Source of the DNA: Patescibacteria group bacterium
GTDB taxonomy: Bacteria > Patescibacteriota > Microgenomatia > UBA12405
DNA: 64,000 nt
Direction: 5' to 3'
NCBI GenBank assembly: GCA_023380755.1
Contig: JAMCSD010000006.1
Location: forward strand, 316,735 to 380,734
A program made the translations under genes and the position numbers. Below, piece after piece: positions 38,426 to 57,852 of the stretch. The notes beneath the pieces are model-generated. The model was not told where the DNA came from. It saw only the letters and a program-made list of their open reading frames with translations, and did not search any database. How positions within the stretch are numbered: position 1 is the first letter of the stretch; each line of letters starts with the position of its first letter.

Positions 38426-39856
38426 ATGGTTGTCCGCACTCGAATGGCCCCCTCGCCGACAGGGGAGTATCACATTGGCCATCTCCGTACTCTCCTTTAT
38501 AACTTTGCTCTGGCGCGCCAAAATAGCGGTCAGTTTATTATTCGTATCGAAGATACCGACCAAAAACGTTTCGTTCCGGGCGCTACCGAAAAAATTTTAC
38601 AGGTCATCAAAGATTACGGTCTCTCCTGGGACGAAGGTCCCGATATTGGCGGTCCCTATGCCCCCTATATCCAGACCCAACGTCTCCCTCTTTACCAAAA
38701 ATATATTCAGGAACTACTTGACCGTAGTCACGCCTACTACTGCTTTTGCTCCGAAGAGCGTCTGACCAAAATGCGGGCTACCCAAACTGCACTCCACCAG
38801 ATTCCCAAATACGACCGTCTTTGTTTGAAATTAACACCACAAGAAGTCAAAGAAAAATTAGCTGCCGGTACTCCTCATGTCGTCCGTCTTCGCGTTCCCG
38901 ACAACGAAGTCATTACCTTCACCGATGCTGTCCGTGGCGAAATCAAAATTAACACCAACGAAATTGATGATCAGGTTTTGATTAAATCCGACGGCATCCC
39001 CACCTATCACTTTGCTGCGGCGGTCGATGACCATTTAATGAATATTACCCATGTCCTTCGGGGTGACGAATGGATTACCTCGACTCCCAAAGCTATTTTA
39101 ATTTACCGTTATCTTGGCTGGGAAGTGCCAACCTATGCTCATCTTACCATCTTTTTGGACCCTAGTGGCCAGGGGAAGATGAGCAAACGCCGTGGTTCTG
39201 TTTCCGCCCGCAGTTTTCTTGAAGCCGGGTATTTACCCGAAGCCATGCTTAATTTCCTCATGCTATTGGGCTGGAACCCGGGTACCGAACAGGAAATTTT
39301 CAGCCTTGATGATTTTATCAAGCAGTTTTCCTTAACCCATCTTCACAAAAAACAACCAGTCTTCGATGTCACCAAGCTCGATTATCTTAACGGGGTCTAC
39401 ATCCGTCGTAAAACCGATGAAGAGCTTGCCAAACTCTTGGCTCCTTTTGTCCCCAAAATCTCTCTTGATAAACTAATAAAAATTGTCCCGCTAATTAAAG
39501 AACGCTTGACCAAGCTTTCGGAGGCCACCGCCCTACTCACTTTTGTTACCGAGGAAGTCCGCCCTTCAGTCGAAGATCTAACCAACAACGGTAAAATCGA
39601 CAAATCGATAGCCATCAATATGTTGTCTCAATCCACCAAAGTCGTTAACGAAACCGACGTAACCAAAACGGATGAACTTAAAAATAAACTAATGGAACTA
39701 ATTAAATCCCAGGAGTGGAAAACCGGTGATTTCTTTATGGTTTTCCGGGTGGCTGTCACCGGCTCCCGTATTACGCCCCCGATTGTCGAGTCTTTGGCCT
39801 TCTTAGAGCCAGCAACGATAATCGACCGCTTACAAAAAGCCCAAGATTTATTGTAA
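38426..39856 (+). CDS. gltX: glutamate--tRNA ligase
   Basis: 476 aa. It has the HIGH motif (PTGEYHIGHLRT) and the KMSKS motif (GKMSKRRG). Confidence 0.95.
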   Translation: MVVRTRMAPSPTGEYHIGHLRTLLYNFALARQNSGQFIIRIEDTDQKRFVPGATEKILQVIKDYGLSWDEGPDIGGPYAPYIQTQRLPLYQKYIQELLDRSHAYYCFCSEERLTKMRATQTALHQIPKYDRLCLKLTPQEVKEKLAAGTPHVVRLRVPDNEVITFTDAVRGEIKINTNEIDDQVLIKSDGIPTYHFAAAVDDHLMNITHVLRGDEWITSTPKAILIYRYLGWEVPTYAHLTIFLDPSGQGKMSKRRGSVSARSFLEAGYLPEAMLNFLMLLGWNPGTEQEIFSLDDFIKQFSLTHLHKKQPVFDVTKLDYLNGVYIRRKTDEELAKLLAPFVPKISLDKLIKIVPLIKERLTKLSEATALLTFVTEEVRPSVEDLTNNGKIDKSIAINMLSQSTKVVNETDVTKTDELKNKLMELIKSQEWKTGDFFMVFRVAVTGSRITPPIVESLAFLEPATIIDRLQKAQDLL

Positions 39857-41004
39857 TGTTTTTTTTAATTTTCTTAGTATTATCACTCTTATGTAAGCCG
39901 GCTCTGGCTCAGGCTAACGATATTCATATTAATCGTTATTGGCCGAATTATCCCGGTGGCGATGCTTTAATTAATATACCTGATAATCAAAGTTACGTCG
40001 AAGTAATTAATAGCGGGTCCGACAATATTGATCTTTCATCTTATTATCTTACTGATAGCACCTCTAATAATTCCATGCACTTATACGGCTCTCTTGCTGG
40101 GGGAAATAAAGCGATATTTCATTTCCAAAATTATCTCAACCATTCTGGCGACACGGTTAATCTGAAAAACGATACTATAAGTATTAACCCTCCAGAAAGC
40201 TTGAGCTACTGTACTGGGTCTTGTTCGGGAACTGATACTACTAACATGCTTTGTGTTTATTTACCTCCTGGTAGTAGTTCTTGGCAAGGAAGCGCAAATG
40301 TTGATATTTGCTACATCGCTTCTATTTTTCCCACTCCAACTATTACTTCCTTACCAACTGCTACGCCTACCGTTGCCCCATCCGTCACTCCTCAACTAAC
40401 TACTATCCCCACCTCAGCAGCCAACAATACCCCCACCCCAACAATTCCTCTTCCTAGTAATACCCCGTTTCCGGATCCTAGCCTAACCGTCGATCCACTA
40501 CCCTTAACCCTTAAAATAGGTCAGAACTATACCGTAAATTTCCATTTAAATAATGCTATAGTTGGTCGCAATTATGTCATTAAGGGTTTTGGGGGTACCA
40601 ATAATAACGGAATTGAAAATCAAAATGGTACTACTTGGTTGTATAGCAATACCGACCTAGATTCTTACAAACAATTTAATGCAGCATCTTCATCGTTTAG
40701 TTCGTCAATAACTATAACTGTCAACCCTAGTCAGATACCTCAATCAATAAACATTGCTTTTAAACCCATTGATATGAGTGATGGTCAAAAATCTTACGCA
40801 CAAACCTCTATGCAAACGGTGACCGTCATTGCCGCCGACCCCACCGCTGCCCCCACTTCGGCAGCCACAGCTATTCCCACCCCCACTGCCGCACCCAGGC
40901 TGGTAAAGCGAACCTCGGCTGTCAGTATTTTGCCCTTTATTTTTATTTTTGTCGGCGGCATTCTCCTGTGTGTCCCCTTTGTTATTGCTAAAATAAAAAA
41001 ATGA
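39856..41004 (+). CDS. surface protein with lamin-tail-like domain, Pro/Thr-rich linkers and C-terminal TM anchor
   Basis: 382 aa with a signal peptide. YVEVINSGSDNIDLSSYYLTD...GDTVNLKN resembles an LTD. It has PT-rich tracts and a C-terminal hydrophobic helix followed by KIKK. Confidence 0.6.
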   Translation: MFFLIFLVLSLLCKPALAQANDIHINRYWPNYPGGDALINIPDNQSYVEVINSGSDNIDLSSYYLTDSTSNNSMHLYGSLAGGNKAIFHFQNYLNHSGDTVNLKNDTISINPPESLSYCTGSCSGTDTTNMLCVYLPPGSSSWQGSANVDICYIASIFPTPTITSLPTATPTVAPSVTPQLTTIPTSAANNTPTPTIPLPSNTPFPDPSLTVDPLPLTLKIGQNYTVNFHLNNAIVGRNYVIKGFGGTNNNGIENQNGTTWLYSNTDLDSYKQFNAASSSFSSSITITVNPSQIPQSINIAFKPIDMSDGQKSYAQTSMQTVTVIAADPTAAPTSAATAIPTPTAAPRLVKRTSAVSILPFIFIFVGGILLCVPFVIAKIKK

Positions 41005-43874: not shown

Positions 43875-45647
43875 TTACCCTTTGTTCTCTATTTTTCCCA
43901 ATTTCCGGGCCAGGGTCACAGCCTCACTTAGCTCCCGCTTTACCTCCTCCACGCCCTTTTCCCAAAAAGCACTGGCCTCAATATCAATTCCGGTTTTAGC
44001 AAAAATATTCTTCGGCGACTCTGACGTTCCCGCAGCTAAAAAGGCCTTCACCTTTTTAACAAAGGCTTTATCTTGCCGTACCGAATTTTGCAGCGATTTG
44101 GAAATTAACTGGCCGCTGGCATAAGAGTAAACATAAAAGTAGCGGCGAATGTGTCCCCAATAGATCCACCAATTTTGGCTCCCCGGCGACTGTTCCACTG
44201 CCGGTCCCATGTACGCCGCCATCCGTTTTTGGAACCATTCTCCAATCTCTTTTTTTGATAAATATCCTTTTTGCCGGTAGTTTTTGTGCAGGTCTTGTTC
44301 AAATTGAAAACAGGCTACCTGACGCCAAATCGATTGAATGTCATTGTCGATTTTATTCATTAACATGGTGAGTTTAGTTTCCTCGTCTGCCCCCTGCGCG
44401 AGCCTCTGGTTAACAAAATCCTCGAAAAAAGTACTGGCCACTTCGGCCGTTGAAGTCGGTGTTCCCCAGGTTAACCCATTTTGTTCCCTTTTCATCAACT
44501 CATTATTAATTCCGTGTCCGGCCTCGTGGGCCAGCGTCGTCACATCCCGGGAGCTGTCAGTCCAATTTAGGAGAATGTATGTCGGGTACAATCTGGTAAA
44601 ACCGGCGCAAAATGCCCCATTCGCCTTACCGGGTTTGGGGTAAACGTCAACTAATCCCTGGCTAATAAAACCGTCGAATATTTGACTGAATTCCGGATCT
44701 AATCCTTGAAATGTTTGGGTTACCAACTCCACTCCTTTTTCGAAAGAATATCGTTGCTGGTTATCGCCGTAACTCAGGTTTCGCTCATGATACTGTAATT
44801 TTGGCAACTTAAATAGTTGTGCCTTTAGTTGGTAAAACTGTTGTGGAATCTCATTGTGACGGCTGACCACTGCCGTCAAACTGTCCACCACTCCCGGTTC
44901 AATATCATCCGCCAACAGTCTCATTGTTTCCGGCCGTGGCGCTTTCCGCAAATTGTCGTTGACTTTCTTATCTTCGAGAACCGAATTTAACTCAATTTCC
45001 GCTACCTCTTCGTATTTTGCCAATATTTCATTAAATAATTCTGCCGCCCGGTCGCGCTCCGGCTTCTTGTGGCTGCGCATGTCGCTTAAAAGCACCTCTA
45101 TGGTTTTGCCTTCCCGAGTTTCTTTTGACAAAAGTTCGTTGGTCATCGATACCCAGTTTTCCCTGGCCGGTTTATCTTTTAGCGTTAAAATATTTTCCTC
45201 AGCCTCACTCAAAAGATACTTACTTTCGGCAAAAAGCTGCTCTAAATAATGATGATATTTTGCCAATGGAGCCGCTGCCAAAAATATTTTCTGTTGTGCT
45301 CCCGGGATTTTGGCTAGGTTGTGGTTAAAAAATCGGAGCTTATTTAGCATTTGTTTGACCACATCATCAATCTTGGTATTCATCGCCTTGATGGCCGGAT
45401 TAGATTGATCCAGTTCCTGCTGCAACCAATAGCTGTAGCCGGTTTTGCCCCCACCCGCCCACCGGCTGGCAAAAGCTTCCCACTCATCCAGCGCCTCTCG
45501 AAGTTTGCGGGAATCTTTTAAATAACTTTTATCTTTTTTCCATTTGCTGAAAAATGCCTCACCAGCCTGCCGGTAACTAGCCAACTCTTCTTCCACCGCT
45601 ATCTTGCCTAACTGTCCCAGGTTCCATTTGGTGATTAGTTCATTCAT
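43875..45647 (-). CDS. pepF: oligoendopeptidase F-like M3 metallopeptidase
   Basis: 590 aa. It has the zinc motif TLAHEAGHG (HExxH) and an M3B-like layout. TATAAT lies 5 nt upstream of the ATG. Confidence 0.85.
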   Translation of the reverse strand: MNELITKWNLGQLGKIAVEEELASYRQAGEAFFSKWKKDKSYLKDSRKLREALDEWEAFASRWAGGGKTGYSYWLQQELDQSNPAIKAMNTKIDDVVKQMLNKLRFFNHNLAKIPGAQQKIFLAAAPLAKYHHYLEQLFAESKYLLSEAEENILTLKDKPARENWVSMTNELLSKETREGKTIEVLLSDMRSHKKPERDRAAELFNEILAKYEEVAEIELNSVLEDKKVNDNLRKAPRPETMRLLADDIEPGVVDSLTAVVSRHNEIPQQFYQLKAQLFKLPKLQYHERNLSYGDNQQRYSFEKGVELVTQTFQGLDPEFSQIFDGFISQGLVDVYPKPGKANGAFCAGFTRLYPTYILLNWTDSSRDVTTLAHEAGHGINNELMKREQNGLTWGTPTSTAEVASTFFEDFVNQRLAQGADEETKLTMLMNKIDNDIQSIWRQVACFQFEQDLHKNYRQKGYLSKKEIGEWFQKRMAAYMGPAVEQSPGSQNWWIYWGHIRRYFYVYSYASGQLISKSLQNSVRQDKAFVKKVKAFLAAGTSESPKNIFAKTGIDIEASAFWEKGVEEVKRELSEAVTLARKLGKIENKG

Positions 45648-47495: not shown

Positions 47496-48647
47496 ATGCC
47501 TTCCATCCGTTACCTCCTGGTTATTGGGCTTGCTTTAATCGGCGTCTCTCTGGCGTCGCTTGCCTATTTCAGCCTCCGCGCCTGGCAGACCATTAGTGTC
47601 ACCCCCCGCCGTTCGCCTGTGCCCCAGCCAACCTCTGTTTTACCCACCCCCACTCCCGATCCTAACCGTCCCTTTTCTATCCTTCTTTTGGGTTACGGCG
47701 GCGGTGTCCACGAAGGCGGAAAGTTAACTGACTCCATCATGTTGGTCAGGGTCGACCCGCACGCCCAAAAAACCACTCTCATTTCCATTCCCCGTGATTT
47801 ATGGGTTCCCTTACCCCTGGAAACGGGCACTACCACCTGGACCAAAATAAACGCTGCTTATCCTTATGGTTTGGATGACCGTCAGTTCCCCCGCAAACCG
47901 GTGGAATTTACCGGTCCGGCCGGCGGCGGTATGTTGGCTAAATACATTATGACCCAGGTTACCGGTATCCCCGTTGATTATTTTGTGGCCGTGGATTTTG
48001 CCGGCTTCCAAAAAGTAATCGATAATTTAGGCGGGATTACGGTCAATGTGGACAAAACCTTTGATGATCCTTTCTATCCGCTCGATACCGGCACCACCGA
48101 CTCTTGCGGCAAAACCCCCGAGGAAATCGCCGCTCTCACCGCCACCATGTCCGGACAAAAACTCGAAGAGCAATTCCCCTGCCGTTATGAAGTTCTCCAT
48201 TTTGTCAAAGGCCTTCAAACCATGGACGGGGCGACCGCTCTTAAATTTGCCCGCTCCCGTCACTCTCCGACTGATGGTGGCGATTTTAACCGGGCCCGCC
48301 GCCAACGCCTGGTTTTGGAAGCCGTCAAAGACAAGGTGGTGAATATTAACTTCATTTCCCAAATTATTCCCACCATTCAAACCTTGTCTTATCACATTCA
48401 AACTGACCTGGATTTAGCTTCTCTGGAAAAACTCCTCAGCCGCTTTTCCGAATTTAGCCAATACCAGGTTACCCAAATTGCCCTGACGGATCAAAACATT
48501 TTAGTTGATGCCAAAACTCCCGAAGGTCAATTCATCCTTGATCCTCGGGCCGGCCGGGGAGAGTGGCAGGAAATCAAAGAAGCCATCACTAATCCGGCAC
48601 TCCTAACTCCTACCCCTACGGCGACGCCATCTGCTAGAATGAAGTAA
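47496..48647 (+). CDS. LytR-CpsA-Psr (LCP) family cell-wall glycopolymer ligase
   Basis: 383 aa with an N-terminal TM. It has DSIMLVRVDP, SIPRDLWV and FARSRH. Confidence 0.85.
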   Translation: MPSIRYLLVIGLALIGVSLASLAYFSLRAWQTISVTPRRSPVPQPTSVLPTPTPDPNRPFSILLLGYGGGVHEGGKLTDSIMLVRVDPHAQKTTLISIPRDLWVPLPLETGTTTWTKINAAYPYGLDDRQFPRKPVEFTGPAGGGMLAKYIMTQVTGIPVDYFVAVDFAGFQKVIDNLGGITVNVDKTFDDPFYPLDTGTTDSCGKTPEEIAALTATMSGQKLEEQFPCRYEVLHFVKGLQTMDGATALKFARSRHSPTDGGDFNRARRQRLVLEAVKDKVVNINFISQIIPTIQTLSYHIQTDLDLASLEKLLSRFSEFSQYQVTQIALTDQNILVDAKTPEGQFILDPRAGRGEWQEIKEAITNPALLTPTPTATPSARMK

Positions 48648-51600
48648 TGGTTAAAAATGCCGTTCGCTTTTTAGGTCTATTCATCGCCCTCTTTTTAATC
48701 ATCCACCAACCTTTAGCCGAGGCCCAAAACACTGCTTCTATTGTTTTATCTGTCGATAATGGCCTTCCCAAACGGGTCGTTGAATACTCTTCTACTCAAG
48801 ATCCGCTAATTGAATATTCTGCCATCAACACCTCCGGCTCGGGGACCCTTGAAATTTATCGGGCCACTCTGGATGATTTATTAACTTACCTCACCCACGA
48901 CAGCAAGTATCAGCAGCTCCATCCTTCCGTCGATACTACCAAACTTACCCCCCTGACTTCCTTCACAGTTGACCTGAATTCTAACCGGCAAAGTAAAAGT
49001 CTGCCGCTTGATAAAAGTGGTATCTATTATTTACGCCTAAAATTGGGTGATTTAACTAGTGAAACCTTTGCCGTCCGTTCTACTTTTGGCAGTCTTGCCC
49101 GCGAAGCCAAAGATACCTTTGTCGTATGGAACCAGGATTTCACCACCCACCGGTCATTAACCTCGGGCACGGTCATGCTTTATAGTCTCAATGGCAGCGC
49201 CAATGTTGTCGGTACTGCCAGTTTCGATGGTGATGGTGTTGCCTCGCTGCCGCTGCGCGCCGATGCTGATCTGGCTGTGGTTGCCGCCAACGATTCTTTC
49301 TCGGTCATCCCTTTTAATATCAAGTCCTTGGGTAATGAGTACTTTTGGCTTTCTTACAACCAACGTGCTGCTGCCAGCCGCTATTTCCTATTTACCGACC
49401 GCCCGATTTACCGCCCCGGGGATACCGTCAAATTTAAGGCTGTTATCCGTGATGATGATGACGCCCGTTATTCCTTGCCTTCGGGACCCGTCCTGGTCAA
49501 ATTATTTAAAGATTGGAATACCGATCATCCCCTTAACTCCCAAACGCTCACTCTCGATAACTATGGTTCGGTTAACGGCACCGTCAAAATTCCGGCCGAT
49601 TATTCTTCAGGGCTTTATTCTCTCCTGCTTAGCCGATCCGGCTATGAAACCAGCGGAGATAATTATGCGGCTAATAACCAAATTTCTTTTCGCGTCGAAA
49701 ACTACCGCAAACCCGATTACACTCTCAGCGCCGTTTCCGCTACCGCCGACCTTGTTCGCGGCGATACGGCCACTGTTCAGATTAAAGGCGAATATTTTTC
49801 CGGTTATCCTCTCAAAAATGTCAAACTAACTTATAAGGTTTATGCCGCGGACTACGGTTACTTTGATGGGGAAACTTATTATCCTAACAATGGCAATTAT
49901 TATTACCATTCCTGGAGCGGCGATGTTATCAAAGAAGGCGAGGTTACTTTTAATGACCAGGGGTTAGCTACCGTCAACATTAAAACCAATGAAAATGACT
50001 CCAAAGGTCATTCTCAAAGCTTTTATATCGAATTTGATTATGCCGATGCCACCGGTAACTCTACCCTAACCGGCCTAAACGTTTTAGTTCGTGCCGGTGA
50101 ATTTGGTATATACCGCTTCGGTGACGTTTACTCCGGCAAACCCGGTGAAAAAATCAGCCTTCCCATTGTTTATAAATCTTTCCGGGACAACGTTTCTTTA
50201 GCCCATCCGCTTTCGGTCAATATTACCCGCCATTGGTGGGAAAAATATCACGATGATAATAATAAATATGACCAGTACCGGGAAAACACCGAAAATGCCG
50301 GCCAGTTTACTCTTGATGTCCCCGGCTCCGGTGAAACTCTACTCAGTTTCACTCCCTCGGCCGAAGGCAGTTACCAAGTTAAAACCTCGACTACCGACGC
50401 CCGCGGCAACTATATCGAAAAAATCTTTTATTTATGGATCAGTCAAGATGCCGCCCGTTTCGATAGCAGTTATAGTTTAGTCACTAATCTTACCATTAAC
50501 ACCGATAAAAAATCTTATCTTCCCGGCCAAACGGTTACTGCCAAAATTACCTCGGCTACTCCCGACCGCGACATTTTCTTTGCCGTTGAACGTGGTTACC
50601 AGGACCGCTATCAAATTGTTCATCTTAACGGTTCTGCCACCACTATCCAACTGCCTTTGGCCGACCACGATTTGCCCAATGTTTATTTAACTGTCCGATC
50701 TTTTGGCTCCGACCGCCTCGATGCTGACGGCCATAACGTTTCCATTTCCACTGACTCCAAAAAAGCCTTCTTCAAAATCACCACCGATAAGTCCTCTTAT
50801 GGCCCCGGCGACGAGGTCACAGCCCAGATTACTTCCACTGATCTGGCTGGAAAGCCGGTTCCGGCTACCATGGCTTTGTGGGCTGTTGACAAGGCTATCT
50901 TTGAACTCTCCGATAAGAATTACGGCAGTATTTTTGATGCCTTTTGGAGCGAGCGCTATGACGGTACCTTAGAAGACAACTCCCTAGAGGGCTTATACAA
51001 CGGCGGCGCCGAAAAAGGCGGTTGTTTCTTAGCTGGCACCAAAATCACCCTGGCTGACGGCACCTCCAAAAACATCGAAGATATTAAAATCGGTGACACA
51101 GTCCTGTCCCGGGCTGCATCGAATGGTCCCAATACTCCGCAAAAAGTTACTGCCCTGCACCACACCTCGGCTCCCGGCTACGTCATTCTCAATGGTACCC
51201 TCCGTTTAACCCCCAACCACCTATTAATGGTCAACCGCCGTTGGCAGCAGGCCGGTTCGGTGCGCGTCGGTGATCTTTTAAGCGATGTCAGCGGACAGCC
51301 GATTAAGGTTAATTCTGTCGAATGGCAAACCGGGCAGGTTCCGGTTTATAACTTTACCGTTGACGAGGCTCATACTTATTTTGCCGATTCCGTCTTGGTC
51401 CACAACGACAAAGGTGATGGTGATGCCCGGGCCCATTTTGATGATACCGCCTACTGGAACCCCACCGTGGTCACCGACAATAACGGCATTGCCACCGTCA
51501 AGTTTAAACTGCCTGACAATTTAACCACTTGGGTTATCACTACCATCGGCGCCTCCACCGACACCAAAGTCGGTGATGCCTTTACCGAAATCAAAACCTC

Positions 51601-53563
51601 CAAAGAACTGGTTATCCGGCCGGTTTTGCCTAACATCCTCCGCCTTGGTGATGAAATTCTCGTGTCGGCCTTAGTCAACAACTACACCAGCCAGGATTTA
51701 GTCGTCGATGCTTCTTTAAAGACCGACGCCGGGGAACTGGTTGAATCAAGCAATACCTCTCGGGTATCGGTCAAGGCCGGGGAATACACTGAAGTCGGTT
51801 GGAAATACAATATAAATAAAGACCAATCGACCGCCTCTTTTGACTTCATCGCCAAAGATGACGCTCATCACCAAGACGAAGTGATTACCAGTTTACCGGT
51901 CCGCCCTTTTGGCTACTGGCAGCCAACCTCGCAATTTAAAGCCGATAATCTTACTTTCCTGGTCGATAAACCCGACTCCATTGATCCCAAAAAATCTGTT
52001 TTAACCCTCGACCTCAGCTCCACCCTTTTTGGCAGTCTGCCGTCTGCCATGCGCTATTTGGTTAATTACCCTTATGGTTGTGTCGAGCAAACCACCAGCG
52101 CCTTAGTCCCCAAAATTTTAGCCCAAAAATATGCTACTCAGTTTGGGGACTCTCTACAGGATTTAACCCCCAAGCATGGTATTGACGAGGGTGTTTCCAA
52201 ACTAAAAGAATTGCAGCAGCCGGATGGCGGCTGGAGTTGGTGGCACGGCTCCTCAAATGATTTCGTCACCGCCTATGTCGTCGAAGTGCTTAATGACGCC
52301 CGGGCGGCCGGATTCACCGTGGATGATTCTTTGTTGGCTCAAGCCCAAAGCTATCTCCTCAGCGGCTACGACAGTCTTCCGGTCGAGGCCAAGGTCACCC
52401 GGGCTTACGGCTTATCTTTTTACGGCTCTGGCAGCCAAAAAATTATTGATCAGGATCTTGGTAAACTGCCCGATGACTTACTGAGTCTCGCTGTGATTAC
52501 TAACTTAAAGAATGGTCTTCAAGACTCTCAGCGCAACGGTCTTAGTCTGCTTCTTTCCCGGGCCAAAAGAACCGATACTACCCTTTACTGGTCTGCCAGT
52601 TCGGTCGACAAATTCGGTTCTGCTGATGCCTCCACTGCTTTGGCCATTCGCGCCCTGACTTTGGCCGGAAACCATGACCAGGACATCGCCTCGGCTCTTA
52701 ACTATTTGGTTCGACACCGCAGTTTTGATTATTGGTCCAACACCTTTGCCACCTCTGAAGTGCTTAAAGCAGTCTTGGGCTACCAGCGGACGCTAACACC
52801 GGCGACCAATTATACTGTCACCCTCGATGGCCGCCAGATTTCCACTGGCAGTTTTTCGGCTACCAAAACCAGTGTAACTGTTACCTTAGATCCCTCCCAA
52901 GTGAAGCCGGGTAGCCGGTTGCTCGTTAGCAAGTCTGGGACCGATCCGCTTTACGCTACATTCAACCAAAAATGGTGGGTCAACTCGCGTGAAGCAGCCA
53001 GCGTCAATCACGGTTTTGCCATCACCAAAAAATATGAAAACGCCAAAGGCGCCAATTACAACCTCTCCCCCGGCGACTTGGTTAAAGTCACTTTAACCAT
53101 TAATCCCGCCGATTCCAGTCTGGTGGATTATGGGGTCATCGAAGACCATCTCCCGTCCGGACTGGTGCCGGTTATCACCACCCTAAAAAATTCGACGCAA
53201 GACCTTCAGGCCAACACCTGGGCTAACGAATACACCGAAAACGGCGTCCAAATTCCCTTTTATCAGTCCACTACCTCTTATACCTATTACGCCCGGGTGG
53301 TCAATCCCGGTAATTTTATTGCCCCGCCCGCCTTTGTCACCCTGATGTATCATCCTGAAGTTTGGGGCCGGTCCGCCTTTGTTCCGGTAACTGTCGATAC
53401 CAACATCCACCTCTCACCCTTAAGCTCCTTAGGGCCCATCACCCGCCAACTTAATTATCAGCAACTTTTAATTACTGTTGCGGTCCTGCTGGCCGCGCTA
53501 CTCTTAATCAGTGTTATCCTCATTGGCCGCCATCGGGCTCCGCCTCTACCTCCTACTGCTTAG
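48647..53563 (+). CDS. alpha-2-macroglobulin-family thioester protein with inserted Hint domain, signal peptide and C-terminal TM anchor
   Basis: 1638 aa with a 1-nt overlap with the LCP stop (TAATG). It has MG-type repeats, AVDKAIFEL...FW (pre-bait), FDDTAYWNP...LPDNLTTW (post-bait), the thioester motif YPYGCVEQTTS and a C-terminal helix VAVLLAALLLISVILIG. Confidence 0.88.
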   Translation: MVKNAVRFLGLFIALFLIIHQPLAEAQNTASIVLSVDNGLPKRVVEYSSTQDPLIEYSAINTSGSGTLEIYRATLDDLLTYLTHDSKYQQLHPSVDTTKLTPLTSFTVDLNSNRQSKSLPLDKSGIYYLRLKLGDLTSETFAVRSTFGSLAREAKDTFVVWNQDFTTHRSLTSGTVMLYSLNGSANVVGTASFDGDGVASLPLRADADLAVVAANDSFSVIPFNIKSLGNEYFWLSYNQRAAASRYFLFTDRPIYRPGDTVKFKAVIRDDDDARYSLPSGPVLVKLFKDWNTDHPLNSQTLTLDNYGSVNGTVKIPADYSSGLYSLLLSRSGYETSGDNYAANNQISFRVENYRKPDYTLSAVSATADLVRGDTATVQIKGEYFSGYPLKNVKLTYKVYAADYGYFDGETYYPNNGNYYYHSWSGDVIKEGEVTFNDQGLATVNIKTNENDSKGHSQSFYIEFDYADATGNSTLTGLNVLVRAGEFGIYRFGDVYSGKPGEKISLPIVYKSFRDNVSLAHPLSVNITRHWWEKYHDDNNKYDQYRENTENAGQFTLDVPGSGETLLSFTPSAEGSYQVKTSTTDARGNYIEKIFYLWISQDAARFDSSYSLVTNLTINTDKKSYLPGQTVTAKITSATPDRDIFFAVERGYQDRYQIVHLNGSATTIQLPLADHDLPNVYLTVRSFGSDRLDADGHNVSISTDSKKAFFKITTDKSSYGPGDEVTAQITSTDLAGKPVPATMALWAVDKAIFELSDKNYGSIFDAFWSERYDGTLEDNSLEGLYNGGAEKGGCFLAGTKITLADGTSKNIEDIKIGDTVLSRAASNGPNTPQKVTALHHTSAPGYVILNGTLRLTPNHLLMVNRRWQQAGSVRVGDLLSDVSGQPIKVNSVEWQTGQVPVYNFTVDEAHTYFADSVLVHNDKGDGDARAHFDDTAYWNPTVVTDNNGIATVKFKLPDNLTTWVITTIGASTDTKVGDAFTEIKTSKELVIRPVLPNILRLGDEILVSALVNNYTSQDLVVDASLKTDAGELVESSNTSRVSVKAGEYTEVGWKYNINKDQSTASFDFIAKDDAHHQDEVITSLPVRPFGYWQPTSQFKADNLTFLVDKPDSIDPKKSVLTLDLSSTLFGSLPSAMRYLVNYPYGCVEQTTSALVPKILAQKYATQFGDSLQDLTPKHGIDEGVSKLKELQQPDGGWSWWHGSSNDFVTAYVVEVLNDARAAGFTVDDSLLAQAQSYLLSGYDSLPVEAKVTRAYGLSFYGSGSQKIIDQDLGKLPDDLLSLAVITNLKNGLQDSQRNGLSLLLSRAKRTDTTLYWSASSVDKFGSADASTALAIRALTLAGNHDQDIASALNYLVRHRSFDYWSNTFATSEVLKAVLGYQRTLTPATNYTVTLDGRQISTGSFSATKTSVTVTLDPSQVKPGSRLLVSKSGTDPLYATFNQKWWVNSREAASVNHGFAITKKYENAKGANYNLSPGDLVKVTLTINPADSSLVDYGVIEDHLPSGLVPVITTLKNSTQDLQANTWANEYTENGVQIPFYQSTTSYTYYARVVNPGNFIAPPAFVTLMYHPEVWGRSAFVPVTVDTNIHLSPLSSLGPITRQLNYQQLLITVAVLLAALLLISVILIGRHRAPPLPPTA
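51023..51406 (+). other. Hint (intein-like / BIL-type) domain, residues 793-920 of the macroglobulin
   Basis: Block A is CFLAGTKITLADGTSKNIEDIKIGDTVLS, block B is LRLTPNHLLMV (TxxH), block F is VYNFTVDEAHTYFAD and block G is SVLVHN. The +1 residue is Asp. There is no endonuclease insert. Confidence 0.85.
52079..52090 (+). other. thioester-forming CxEQ motif (CVEQ)
   Basis: TGT GTC GAG CAA is in frame at residue 1145, within YPYGCVEQTTSALVP. Confidence 0.85.
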
Positions 53564-54266
53564 CTTTTTAGGTTTAAACCAAGCACTGCCTCAAACTGTT
53601 ATCCGGGGTGCCGTTATCCCTCATCATGAAGTGGCCGTTGAATTCATCAGGGATCTTGGTCGCCGCTTGGCTCCCCAATCACCGCCTCGGATTTTTATTA
53701 TTAGCCCCAATCACCAGGAAATTGGCCTTGGCCCGGTCTTAACTGACCAGCCGCTTTTTGCTGATGTCGCCCGAGTCGACCCGGCGACCATTGCCCAAGA
53801 ACATGGTTATCAGGTTCCCAAAAAAATTCTCTCGGAATTTCTTCCCCACACCCAATTCATACCCCTGGTCGTCAGTTCCCACCTTGACTCGGCGACTCAA
53901 GACCAATTAGTCCAAGAATTATCTTTAACCTTAGCTGAACGGGATGTACTGGTGACCTCCACTGATTTTTCCCATTACCGGAACCTAGCCACTGCCGATG
54001 CCAAAGACCAGGTTACCCAAAAGCTGATTCAGGACCGCAATTACGCCGAAATCCTGAAATTAAACAATGACTACCTTGATTCTCCCCGTTCCTTAGAAAT
54101 TCTTATGAAGACTATGGCAACCAAGGGAATCACTACCCCGGACTTTGTGAATCATAGCAATTCCGCCATCATATCGGCGGACCCTGGTTCGTTATCGACC
54201 ACCAGCTATTTTGAAATTTTGTACCGGGCTAATTTAGGTACTTCCGCAAAAACCCTAAGCTTTTAA
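53511..54266 (+). CDS. Memo/LigB-like (class III extradiol dioxygenase B-like fold) protein
   Basis: 251 aa. It has GAVIPHHEVA, ISPNH and TDFSHY. The GTG start overlaps the macroglobulin 3' end by 53 nt, and the N-terminus is hydrophobic. The family and start calls are moderate. Confidence 0.5.
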   Translation: MLSSLAAIGLRLYLLLLSFLGLNQALPQTVIRGAVIPHHEVAVEFIRDLGRRLAPQSPPRIFIISPNHQEIGLGPVLTDQPLFADVARVDPATIAQEHGYQVPKKILSEFLPHTQFIPLVVSSHLDSATQDQLVQELSLTLAERDVLVTSTDFSHYRNLATADAKDQVTQKLIQDRNYAEILKLNNDYLDSPRSLEILMKTMATKGITTPDFVNHSNSAIISADPGSLSTTSYFEILYRANLGTSAKTLSF

Positions 54267-56097: not shown

Positions 56098-57852
56098 ATG
56101 GAACCGGCTGAACAAGCCCATCTGATTGCCTCGCTCGAACTGTATTTAGGCATTGCTATCGCCGTCATCATCGTGCTCGCCTTCTTGCTTTATCGCCGTC
56201 GTCATGTCGCCTCTAATCCCTCCACTTCCTCTCAACCCTGGGACCCGGCTCCGGCTCCCGCCGAACCCGAGCCAAACATTCATTTAGGTGAGAATTTTTA
56301 CACCCATGTCGACCAGCTGATCATCAAAGAGCTGCGAGCTAATCTTCAAGTTATCGTTGAGCCCGAACGGACCGACAATGTCGCCGTGTCTATCGAAGGC
56401 CCCAAGAGTGCTGTGGAAGCTTTAAAGCTTAACCAAAACGGCGGTCAACTAACCGTTTCTTCTCCGGTACCGAATCTTCGTGATATCTCTATCCATGCAG
56501 GCATCTCCATTAGCGACCTTCGGGTTAGCATCGGCCGTGGCTATTTCACCCGGCTTCCGGATATTACTATTCGTTTGTCACCCAACGTTAAACTCTCTTT
56601 GTCCCAAACAGAAGGCACTGCCAATATCGGCGACCTTGGTAACGAAGTTAGGATTAACTGGGAGTCTGATGATCCTCTGGTCTTGGGCAATATCACTCAT
56701 CTCAAGTTGACCACTGAAAGTGATGGTTCCGTCCAGGTCGGGCAGGTTAGCTCTTTCTTCGCTCTCGAGTCCAATGGTAATGGTGATGTCACCGTCGTTT
56801 CTCTCGACACCCCCCACACTCCCGTCGAAATCACCCTCAATGATGACGGCTCGTTTAACGTCGGGCACATTGCCGCCGACTCCCTTAAGGTGACTCTCAA
56901 CAGTAACGGTAGCTGCCACACTGATTCTGTAGAGACTCCCGCGGGTGTTGTTTACGTGGCTATTAATGACGATGGTAACTGTGAGTTGGGTGATGTTCGT
57001 TGCCTGTCCTTTGGCTATAACTGTCAAGGTGATGGTAATTTAACCACTAAGTCAATAACCGGCGCCGAAGGTATCGAGTTGGTGTTGGCTGATGATGGTA
57101 ATTTCCAATCCGGTTTGATCGCTGGCGGGTATTTGACCATCGATTCTAGTGCTTACGGAGAAATCAATATTGAATCAGTTTCGGTTTCCGGTTTTATCAC
57201 TGTCTCCGTTAACGAGATCTCCTGTGATCTGGGTACTGTCGCCTGTGAATCGTTTTCCTTGGTTTCCGAGGGTGATGGTGACATCAATCTTCAGTCATTA
57301 ACTGCCAACGGCAATGTTAATATCACCCTCAAGGACGATGCCAATTGTCGCCTCGGTTCCCTGACCGCCGGCTCGGTAAAGTTCGCCTCTATTGGCGATG
57401 GCGATCTCTTCGCCACCTCCATTAGTACCCGGATTGGTGAAGTCCACATGACTTTAAGCGACGATGGTGGAGCTACTGTCGGCTCAGTCATTAGTTCGGC
57501 CTTACGCTTGATACTCACCGGTGATGGCGCCGCCAGTTTCGACTCACTAAACTGCCACGTTCTTAATTTCGAAGTCAACGACGACGGTGGAGTCAAAATT
57601 ATCAAGACCACCGCCTACACTGTCGACATCAAGATGAACGGCTATGGCGACATCGACCTTGGCTCTGGGGAGGTCGCCAACGATCTTCGGGTGGCCAATG
57701 ATGCTGATGCTAACTTTAACTTCGACGGTACTGCCCAAAATGCCCATTTAACCACTCAGAGTGGCGGCAGTATCTTTGTCCATCAGGTCACTAATACGCC
57801 TTTAATGAGACGCCGCGGTGATGGAGAAATTACGGTAGCCAATTGGTCCTAA
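56098..57852 (+). CDS. membrane-anchored beta-solenoid repeat protein (DUF2807/DUF4097-like putative adhesin)
   Basis: 584 aa with an AAGGAG RBS. An N-terminal TM and Pro-rich spacer precede about 15 degenerate 22-25-aa repeats alternating xDDGx and xGDGx turns, such as LNDDGSFNVGHI and SEGDGDINLQSL. Confidence 0.6.
   Translation: MEPAEQAHLIASLELYLGIAIAVIIVLAFLLYRRRHVASNPSTSSQPWDPAPAPAEPEPNIHLGENFYTHVDQLIIKELRANLQVIVEPERTDNVAVSIEGPKSAVEALKLNQNGGQLTVSSPVPNLRDISIHAGISISDLRVSIGRGYFTRLPDITIRLSPNVKLSLSQTEGTANIGDLGNEVRINWESDDPLVLGNITHLKLTTESDGSVQVGQVSSFFALESNGNGDVTVVSLDTPHTPVEITLNDDGSFNVGHIAADSLKVTLNSNGSCHTDSVETPAGVVYVAINDDGNCELGDVRCLSFGYNCQGDGNLTTKSITGAEGIELVLADDGNFQSGLIAGGYLTIDSSAYGEINIESVSVSGFITVSVNEISCDLGTVACESFSLVSEGDGDINLQSLTANGNVNITLKDDANCRLGSLTAGSVKFASIGDGDLFATSISTRIGEVHMTLSDDGGATVGSVISSALRLILTGDGAASFDSLNCHVLNFEVNDDGGVKIIKTTAYTVDIKMNGYGDIDLGSGEVANDLRVANDADANFNFDGTAQNAHLTTQSGGSIFVHQVTNTPLMRRRGDGEITVANWS

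Follow-up and report, generated by a model that had tools for sequence, protein, structure and literature searches.

The A2M gene and its Hint domain

We analysed a window of 64,000 nucleotides (positions 316,735 to 380,734 of the forward strand of contig JAMCSD010000006.1, from a Patescibacteria group bacterium), in which a gene for a thioester alpha-2-macroglobulin (A2M) has its bait loop interrupted by a Hint domain that, judged by its motifs, is a type A bacterial intein-like (BIL) domain. The reading frame of 1638 codons is uninterrupted and its product is identical to an NCBI protein of a Patescibacteria group bacterium. The features of the gene, with coordinates counted within the window and with slashes marking cleavage points or domain junctions here and below, are as follows:

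48647-53563 (+): thioester alpha-2-macroglobulin gene with Hint insert, 1638 aa, from the list of open reading frames (ORFs) and the translation
48647-48724 (+): putative Sec signal peptide, residues 1-26 (...HQPLAEA/QN), read from the sequence by its basic n-region, hydrophobic core and AxA-like site
50489-50908 (+): A2M bait-region-domain match PF07703 (A2M_BRD), residues 615-754, Pfam E=9.6e-16
50954-51022 (+): N-side bait tether, residues 770-792 (RYDGTLEDNSLEGLYNGGAEKGG), ending in Gly-Gly and delimited by alignment with the E. coli A2M (ECAM), by the predicted local distance difference test (pLDDT) and by conservation
51023-51406 (+): type A BIL/Hint domain, residues 793-920, assigned by sequence and fold matches
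51023-51025 (+): Cys793 of the Hint, its N-terminal Cys1
51209-51220 (+): Hint block B, Thr855/His858
51350-51352 (+): Hint block F, Asn902
51401-51406 (+): terminal His919-Asn920 of the Hint
51407-51430 (+): C-side bait tether, residues 921-928 (DKGDGDAR), with Asp at +1, Lys922 (51410-51412) at +2 and Gly at +3
51446-51706 (+): A2M Pfam domain PF00207, residues 934-1020, E=4.6e-19
52076-52090 (+): thioester motif GCVEQ, residues 1144-1148 (Cys1145), inside a thioester domain (TED) Pfam match at 1132-1239
53465-53527 (+): putative C-terminal transmembrane anchor, residues 1607-1627, followed by the basic tail RHRAPPLPPTA, read from the sequence

The host protein is a bona fide thioester-type (type I) A2M, as its domain set and its CxEQ motif demonstrate. 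Pfam matches comprise MG2, A2M_BRD (615-754), A2M (934-1020), TED (TED_complement) and bMG10, while Foldseek retrieves ECAM, C3, C4, C5 and A2ML1 at E~1e-15; ECAM and the Salmonella protein SaA2M are also matched by phmmer, and their structures 5A42 and 4U48, respectively, by Foldseek. With these bacterial type I proteins (ECAM/YfhM and SaA2M) it shares the ring of macroglobulin (MG) domains, a bait-region domain lying within an MG domain, the CxEQ-bearing TED, the C-terminal bMG10 and membrane anchoring. It differs from ECAM, to which it is about 12% identical in structural alignment, in having a C-terminal transmembrane helix instead of an N-terminal lipid, in the Memo-like partner gene found in its main clade and in a bait that is interrupted by 128 residues of Hint. 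The signal peptide and the C-terminal anchor indicate that the protein is probably exported and held on the cell surface. Cys793 of the Hint and Cys1145 of the thioester motif, which lies 225 residues C-terminal of Asn920, are the sole cysteines of the protein.

Translation of positions 51023-51406 gives 128 residues, reading CFLAGTKI...LTPNH...VYNFTVDEAHTYFADSVLVHN, followed by DKGDGD. These residues form a Hint domain, with matches far beyond chance. An excised segment of 156 aa scored in Pfam against PT-HINT (E=4e-12, 47 bits, with a gathering score of 27.7), Hint (34.8 bits, gathering score 29.7), Hom_end_hint (34.8, 32.1) and Vint (27.2, 27), and in NCBIfam against intein_Cterm (25.7 bits, with a cut-off of 15.6). 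When compared with the PDB by phmmer, the best match was the bacterial intein-like domain 2LWY (E=2.9e-9), followed by the toxin-protein Hint 8W20 and then by the mini-inteins of Mtu RecA. The fold agrees: in an AlphaFold model of the junction segment the Hint has a pLDDT of about 80-96, and Foldseek finds as best match BIL2 of the Tetrahymena BUBL protein (6Y75/6TMM, E=2.5e-11), superimposes 2LWY with a TM-score of 0.83 and a root-mean-square deviation of 1.9 A, and ranks BILs above inteins and Hedgehog, all with probability 1.00 and target-normalised TM-scores of up to 0.83.

Among Hint domains, the combination of Cys1, TxxH and His-Asn with a missing +1 nucleophile, a missing endonuclease and a position in the variable region of a secreted protein identifies it by sequence as a type A BIL. 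Type A BILs such as that of C. thermocellum (2LWY) have the same N-terminal Cys, TxxH, block F (VYN[FL]xV..H) and His-Asn at a length of ~130 aa, also without a +1 nucleophile or an endonuclease and also in variable regions of secreted proteins; in the present case the host and the site, an A2M bait, are new, the domain is fixed across a large clade, and Gly-Gly at -2/-1 and x-Lys-Gly at +1 to +3 are strictly conserved. Class 1 mini-inteins (Mtu RecA, Npu DnaB) share the HINT fold, blocks A, B, F and G, Cys1 and the terminal His-Asn. They differ from the domain described here, whose first downstream residue is Asp921, so that the Cys, Ser or Thr nucleophile obligatory in that class is absent, and which has Asn for Asp at position 4 of block F, is inserted at one fixed site into the non-conserved loop of a surface protein without a housekeeping role, bears no sign of the mobility and sporadic occurrence at conserved sites of essential proteins that typify that class, and has no endonuclease within its 128 aa. 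The pretoxin-HINT family (PF07591, 8W20), which provides the best Pfam model and the second PDB sequence match, likewise consists of self-cleaving modules of secreted proteins (self-cleavage being predicted here); it is found just upstream of a C-terminal toxin, whereas this Hint is internal to a loop and is followed by A2M, TED, bMG10 and a transmembrane helix, with no toxin domain found downstream by Pfam. BIL2 (6Y75/6TMM) has the same Gly-Gly before the BIL and a lysine amine that resolves the thioester; it is eukaryotic with ubiquitin-like flanks, while the Hint described here has half of an A2M as its N-extein and a candidate lysine in cis at +2.

Placement in the bait loop

The Hint sits in the A2M bait loop, since three independent anchors agree: ECAM R923, an alignment from which the Hint had been deleted, and the alignments with human A2M and C4. 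The first was obtained with phmmer, in which residues 521-773 of the query match chain positions 642-904 of 4RTD. As the construct begins at residue 23 and its Cys index 1165 is Cys1187, an offset of +22 was applied, and R770-G773 of the query then correspond to R923-A926 of ECAM, where the Arg923-Leu942 stretch, disordered once elastase has cleaved the bait, begins (PMC4498604). For the second, the Hint was deleted in silico and the family was aligned with Hint-less relatives and with ECAM from E. coli K-12, which placed the insertion point at about G948-D950 of ECAM, inside a Gly-rich linker of variable length between the conserved anchors FW..R and R..F.DTAYWNP. In the query the DTAYWNP anchor occupies residues 933-939, with the PF00207 match opening at Thr934, and DTAYWN is invariant among the homologues.

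The third anchor comes from eukaryotic proteins. The query from residue 921 onward, the first residue after the Hint, matches C4 from residue 768 onward, which in UniProt coordinates is ~11 residues past the C4a/C4b cleavage site and just beyond the C4a anaphylatoxin (ANA) domain. From residue 917 onward it matches human A2M from residue 720 onward, the bait of human A2M being 690-728 (PMC8267569). A 529-residue AlphaFold model covering residues 571-1099 (mean pLDDT 82) has a confidently predicted Hint between two tethers with pLDDT <50, residues 775-790 and 923-935; the placement of domains relative to one another is unreliable in this model (pTM 0.47), and for this reason the orientation of the Hint with respect to the MG ring was not interpreted. 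The tethers are thus predicted to be disordered and the bait loop to be interrupted by a folded Hint, which makes the continuity of the mature bait dependent on the putative splicing.

A preliminary description of this stretch had proposed an intein-like Hint domain at the bait position of an A2M. The domain is borne out by profile (PT-HINT, intein_Cterm, 2LWY) as well as by fold, and its position by the ECAM, Hint-deleted and human A2M alignments. The macroglobulin flanks that it quoted are present on both sides, and the GCVEQ motif is located, as it had estimated, about 225 residues further on.

Conservation and distribution of the Hint-bearing A2Ms

All sequences compared in this section are derived from metagenomes. 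Of the 53 next homologues, which range from 64% down to 27% identity, 52 carry a Hint at the same site. A profile spanning the junctions was then searched against 1.84 billion representatives of clusters at 50% identity and gave 747 matches at E<=1e-30; among the best 150 of these, roughly 115 cover the whole profile continuously, mostly in proteins of 1640-1820 aa with some shorter fragments. The junctions and catalytic positions of 106 representatives were parsed with hmmalign. Cys1, Thr63, His66, His127, Asn128 and Gly-1 were each found in 106/106, Gly-2 in 100, Lys+2 in 102 and Gly+3 in 95, while the +1 position varied (Q43, D33, E12, G11, K3, S2, N1, L1). The same is seen in 53 closer homologues, with invariant catalytic residues, Gly-1 and Gly-2 in 53/53, Lys+2 in 52/53 and, at +1, Q31, D12, E9 and K1. 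Cys1 of the Hint and the thioester Cys are, in most members, the only two cysteines of the mature protein. Of the 88 full-length representatives, 83 have the CxEQ thioester motif.

The same profile search also recovered proteins in which a closely related BIL is repeated 2-11 times in tandem, with direct joints of the form ...VHN/KGG/CF... (P0122, P0127, P0129, P0241 and about 19 more representatives), and two of them, P0129 and P0241, have prepilin-type N-termini. Full processing of the copies would leave only Lys-Gly-Gly units, and lysine-isopeptide chemistry in pilin-like surface proteins is conceivable. Because the Gly-Gly/Cys ... His-Asn/(x)Lys-Gly junction is shared with these tandem arrays of unrelated pilin-like proteins, it is to be regarded as a signature of the BIL subfamily. 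The idea that junction conservation is a property of the bait only has to be partly rejected, the same GG/C...HN/KGG junctions being found in the arrays.

The mean pairwise identity of the Hint (0.488) is above that of the host (0.409) and very close to that of the adjacent MG domains (0.490), and the divergence of Hint and host is correlated (Pearson r=0.68). The GC content of the Hint is within one standard deviation of that of the rest of the gene. No direct repeats flanking the Hint were found, and excision at the level of the gene by way of such repeats was rejected. As the whole domain is as conserved as the MG domains, co-diverges with its host, has no endonuclease, is of normal composition and lies among chromosomal housekeeping genes, it is, by these comparisons, best described as a domesticated module, vertically inherited under strong purifying selection, and not as a mobile intein.

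Hint-bearing loci were found in species-representative genomes labelled Microgenomates, Daviesbacteria, Roizmanbacteria, WWE3, Moranbacteria and Patescibacteria. A diverged subfamily of A2Ms with the Hint at the same site is larger (2093-2285 aa), ~26% identical, has an N-terminal Big_5 domain and junctions of the form GGSGGG/CF...VHN/QKG; in this subfamily (L003/L004, L018, L019, L021) a PBP1C-like gene (Transgly, Transpeptidase, BiPBP_C) is directly upstream, as in the yfhM-pbpC pair of E. coli. Judged from these sequences, the Hint-bearing A2Ms belong mostly to Microgenomates-type Patescibacteria and fall into two deeply diverged subfamilies. The A2Ms of Peregrinibacteria/Peribacteria, Chloroflexota and others match the downstream anchor only, and no Hint was found in them by tblastn.

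Two Hint-less members are nested among the Hint-bearing ones. One (P0046/L002), 56% identical to the Hint-bearing P0018, reads ...GGAERGGG-GGNPNR... at the site, and the other (L040) reads ...GGPEMGGGGGSTR..., which means that loss of the Hint is possible and tolerated. The Gly-rich context of the site is also present in Hint-less relatives and is ancestral. L040 and L041, two contigs of one Patescibacteria genome (isolate SBF912LR0HQ0104), share the 5' half of a Hint-less A2M as far as ...GGPEMG, after which L041 frameshifts and ends near the end of its contig, so that the assembly seemingly breaks or duplicates exactly at the bait site.

The titles of some records are at odds with this distribution, namely 'uncultured Gammaproteobacteria' (L005, L006, L016-L018, L021), 'Nevskiaceae' (L008), 'Bathyarchaeia' (L019) and 'Methanoperedens' (P0021). 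The synteny of A2M with the Memo-like gene described below, together with a similar identity, is seen in L005, L006 and L008 but not in the Bathyarchaeia locus. Such titles are probably the result of mislabelling or mis-binning of metagenome-assembled genomes.

As regards the preliminary description, its statement that the +1 residue is not a classical nucleophile extends to the family, where Cys and Thr do not occur at +1 and Ser does so in just 2/106 relatives. Its view of the domain as one without an endonuclease that had not recently invaded the gene is in keeping with the 128 aa, the co-divergence with the host and the normal base composition. The survey of orthologues for which it called found the Hint in 52/53 homologues and in at least 106 cluster representatives.

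Proposed excision of the Hint during maturation

Conservation of the residues required at the two junctions is complete, which is why the Hint is likely to be active and to leave the loop wholly, and the family comparisons characterise it as a catalytically competent, putatively self-processing module. Since both junctions are conserved, complete excision is more likely than a Hedgehog-like reaction confined to the N junction. Type A BILs have been described as forming an N-terminal thioester, cyclising the C-terminal Asn and ligating their flanks by amine attack, without a +1 nucleophile (PMC4031507). In BIL2 of Tetrahymena, a Gly-Gly thioester is resolved by the epsilon-amine of a lysine to an isopeptide, either in cis or onto other proteins (PMC8616854).

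We favour, with a probability of roughly 40%, a reading in which the Hint is excised with cis-aminolysis as a maturation step that restores a continuous bait. After Sec export and folding, an N-S acyl shift at Cys793 would convert the Gly792-Cys793 bond into a Gly-thioester, and cyclisation at His919-Asn920 would cut the Asn920-Asp921 bond. The amine resolving the thioester in cis would then be either the alpha-amine set free on residue 921, by the route proposed for type A BILs, or the epsilon-amine of the near-invariant Lys922, as in BIL2. This would release a 13.9-kDa Hint and leave a continuous bait of ~30 residues rich in Gly, Lys and acidic residues, and the matured protein would act as an ordinary protease-triggered thioester trap. 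The sequence ...AERGGG-GGNPNR... of the Hint-less relatives resembles the predicted ligated product, and human A2M remains native and functional with a bait built solely from Gly-Gly-Ser repeats (PMC8267569). Some of the molecules are probably left as a nicked two-chain form, and excision may gate the time at which the trap becomes competent.

Several points weigh against excision as the whole explanation. In heterologous tests of BILs, cleavage products dominate and little splicing is seen (PMC4031507, PMC7664689), and by analogy this bias to N- and C-cleavage favours a nicked over a re-ligated bait. The Hint is retained in >100 clusters even though its loss is tolerated (P0046, L040), which is hard to explain for a domain that is only removed. 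It is, moreover, the whole domain and not just the catalytic blocks that is as conserved as the MG domains. Finally, the Hint is kept with its Cys1 in members that have lost CxEQ (L012, L015; 5/88 full-length representatives), and in L015, a 1704-aa ORF, the Hint cysteine is the only cysteine of the protein, which may point to a role outside classical trapping. The self-processing itself is, for this protein, deduced from conserved residues.

The preliminary description had suggested a self-processing bait, matured by splicing or armed or fired by autocleavage. All of its parts that could be examined held, the suggestion as such still being founded on the conserved catalytic residues; the vertical inheritance throughout the family, the conservation of Gly-Gly and Lys-Gly and the kinship with the tandem BILs were beyond its view.

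Alternative explanations

Beyond being spliced out, the Hint might be a working part of the trap, either as a protease-independent, possibly conditional self-trigger, a kind of internal convertase that would sever the bait at the place of the complement ANA domain, or, in addition or instead, as a second warhead comparable to BIL2; we hold this wider proposal only tentatively. Its first form, a built-in trigger or priming device, is the main rival of excision with ligation and somewhat unlikely taken by itself. In this form the Hint would cut one or both junctions without re-ligation and the bait would be self-severed, giving either a stable two-chain A2M like furin-processed C3/C4/C5 or a scission that sets off the conformational change, with exposure of the Cys1145 thioester and no need for an external protease, in a manner that may be timed or conditional on pH, redox state, metal, thiol or amine. 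One use may be covalent deposition on a nearby surface, e.g., the host cell of an episymbiont. The tendency of BIL domains to cleave rather than to splice agrees with such a trigger. In ECAM and human A2M the trigger is known to be scission of the bait, which brings about collapse and exposure of the thioester (PMC4498604, PMC8267569). Zn-dependent activation has been reported for BIL2 (PMC8616854). Moreover, as the match of query residue 921 with C4 residue 768 indicates, the Hint occupies the position of the ANA domain of C3/C4/C5, a small globular domain at the bait-equivalent site whose removal triggers a conformational change; the ANA domain is of an unrelated helical fold and is removed by an external convertase, whereas the Hint bears its own predicted cleavage chemistry. 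Retention despite tolerated loss and the conservation of the whole domain also suggest a function beyond removal. On the other hand, self-firing would cost the A2M its thioester if it were not under tight control, and the conditional nature of the firing is putative. There is, in addition, no other Cys and so no disulfide to hold two chains together as in C3, and the near-invariant Lys+2 and the Gly-Gly at -2/-1 fit aminolysis chemistry better.

The second form, in which the Gly791-Gly792 thioester would be passed in trans to a lysine or other nucleophile of an attacking protease, of a surface protein of the host cell or of the cell wall, is improbable. It draws on the closest solved fold, BIL2, which needs no ATP to conjugate a Gly-Gly C-terminus with lysines on other proteins, and it would be consistent with the invariant Gly-Gly/Cys junction, with the retention of the Hint in members that lack the TED thioester and with the HN/KGG/C arrays that the same BIL subfamily forms in pilin-like surface proteins. 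This argument is by analogy throughout. No role as a transferable tag is known for the N-terminal half from MG1 to MG7, the conserved His-Asn at the C junction would not be needed for simple transfer, and Lys+2 in cis would compete with external nucleophiles.

We consider it very unlikely that the Hint is a non-catalytic structural insert, which would stay in the mature protein as a folded domain that plugs the bait or serves in recognition, comparable to an ANA domain that is never removed, with the tethers as the real bait. Baits do tolerate large changes of sequence, the tethers, which are disordered by prediction, include Lys, Glu and Asp, and the whole Hint domain is conserved; inactive Hints, however, lose their catalytic residues, while here Cys1, TxxH and His-Asn are kept in 106/106 proteins that otherwise avoid cysteine. 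A selfish mobile intein recently invading the gene, or an artefact of assembly or annotation, might be suspected from the mini-intein size, the motif blocks and the metagenomic origin of the assemblies, but is scarcely credible given that >100 diverged clusters, drawn from numerous independent samples and assemblies, have the domain at the same site, and given the co-divergence with the host, the missing endonuclease and +1 nucleophile, the normal composition including GC content and the intact frame.

Novelty and possible significance

To our knowledge, A2M, C3 and TEP proteins are all thought to await an external protease for the cutting of the bait, and the natural roles of BIL domains, which are known self-cutters, are, as far as we know, largely obscure. 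The presence of a BIL in the bait of an A2M during the whole history of a large clade joins two thioester chemistries in one protein and offers a natural test of autocatalytic bait scission, as well as what may be an early clear physiological role for BIL domains. If the self-trigger or the warhead were real, episymbiotic Patescibacteria would carry a self-arming covalent surface protein. The protein is also an abundant, little-studied surface protein of Patescibacteria, which could have a part in defence or in the attachment to host cells, and its Gly-Gly/Cys ... His-Asn/x-Lys-Gly junction is a candidate compact, nucleophile-free ligation or cleavage module for protein engineering.

The combination of domains is visible in precomputed Pfam annotations, and an uninformative Hint-only search of a word-indexed protein database returned a single fragment. 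Full-text literature searches combining intein, BIL or Hint with macroglobulin or A2M, and Patescibacteria with macroglobulin, gave only incidental co-occurrences and no such architecture, in line with the preliminary description, whose author knew of no A2M with a Hint at the bait. A BIL inside the bait of a bacterial A2M therefore seems to be present in databases but undiscussed.

Neighbouring genes

The 3' end of the A2M gene is overlapped by the following gene:

53511-54266 (+): Memo-like gene, PF01875 E=1e-9, matching profile positions 91-258 of 269

A homologue of this gene is located downstream on the same strand in 9 of 12 Hint-bearing loci of the Candidate Phyla Radiation (CPR) type, and also in 2 Hint-less loci. 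In the main clade (L002, L005-L009, L011, L014, L015, L026, L040) the Memo-like neighbour replaces the classical A2M-PbpC pairing.

Upstream, a gene of the LytR-CpsA-Psr family (47496-48647, +) ends on the first base of the A2M start codon, and this 1-nt overlap suggests that the two genes may be translationally coupled. No LytR-CpsA-Psr homologue was found beside the A2M in the other loci examined.

The proteins of the window are otherwise those of chromosomal housekeeping, such as tRNA synthetases, RecJ, SecDF and RNase Y. Other putative surface proteins are encoded at 39856-41004 (+), with a lamin-tail domain, and at 56098-57852 (+), with a DUF2807 adhesin-head-like domain, and a gene for an M3 oligopeptidase is located at 43875-45647 (-).

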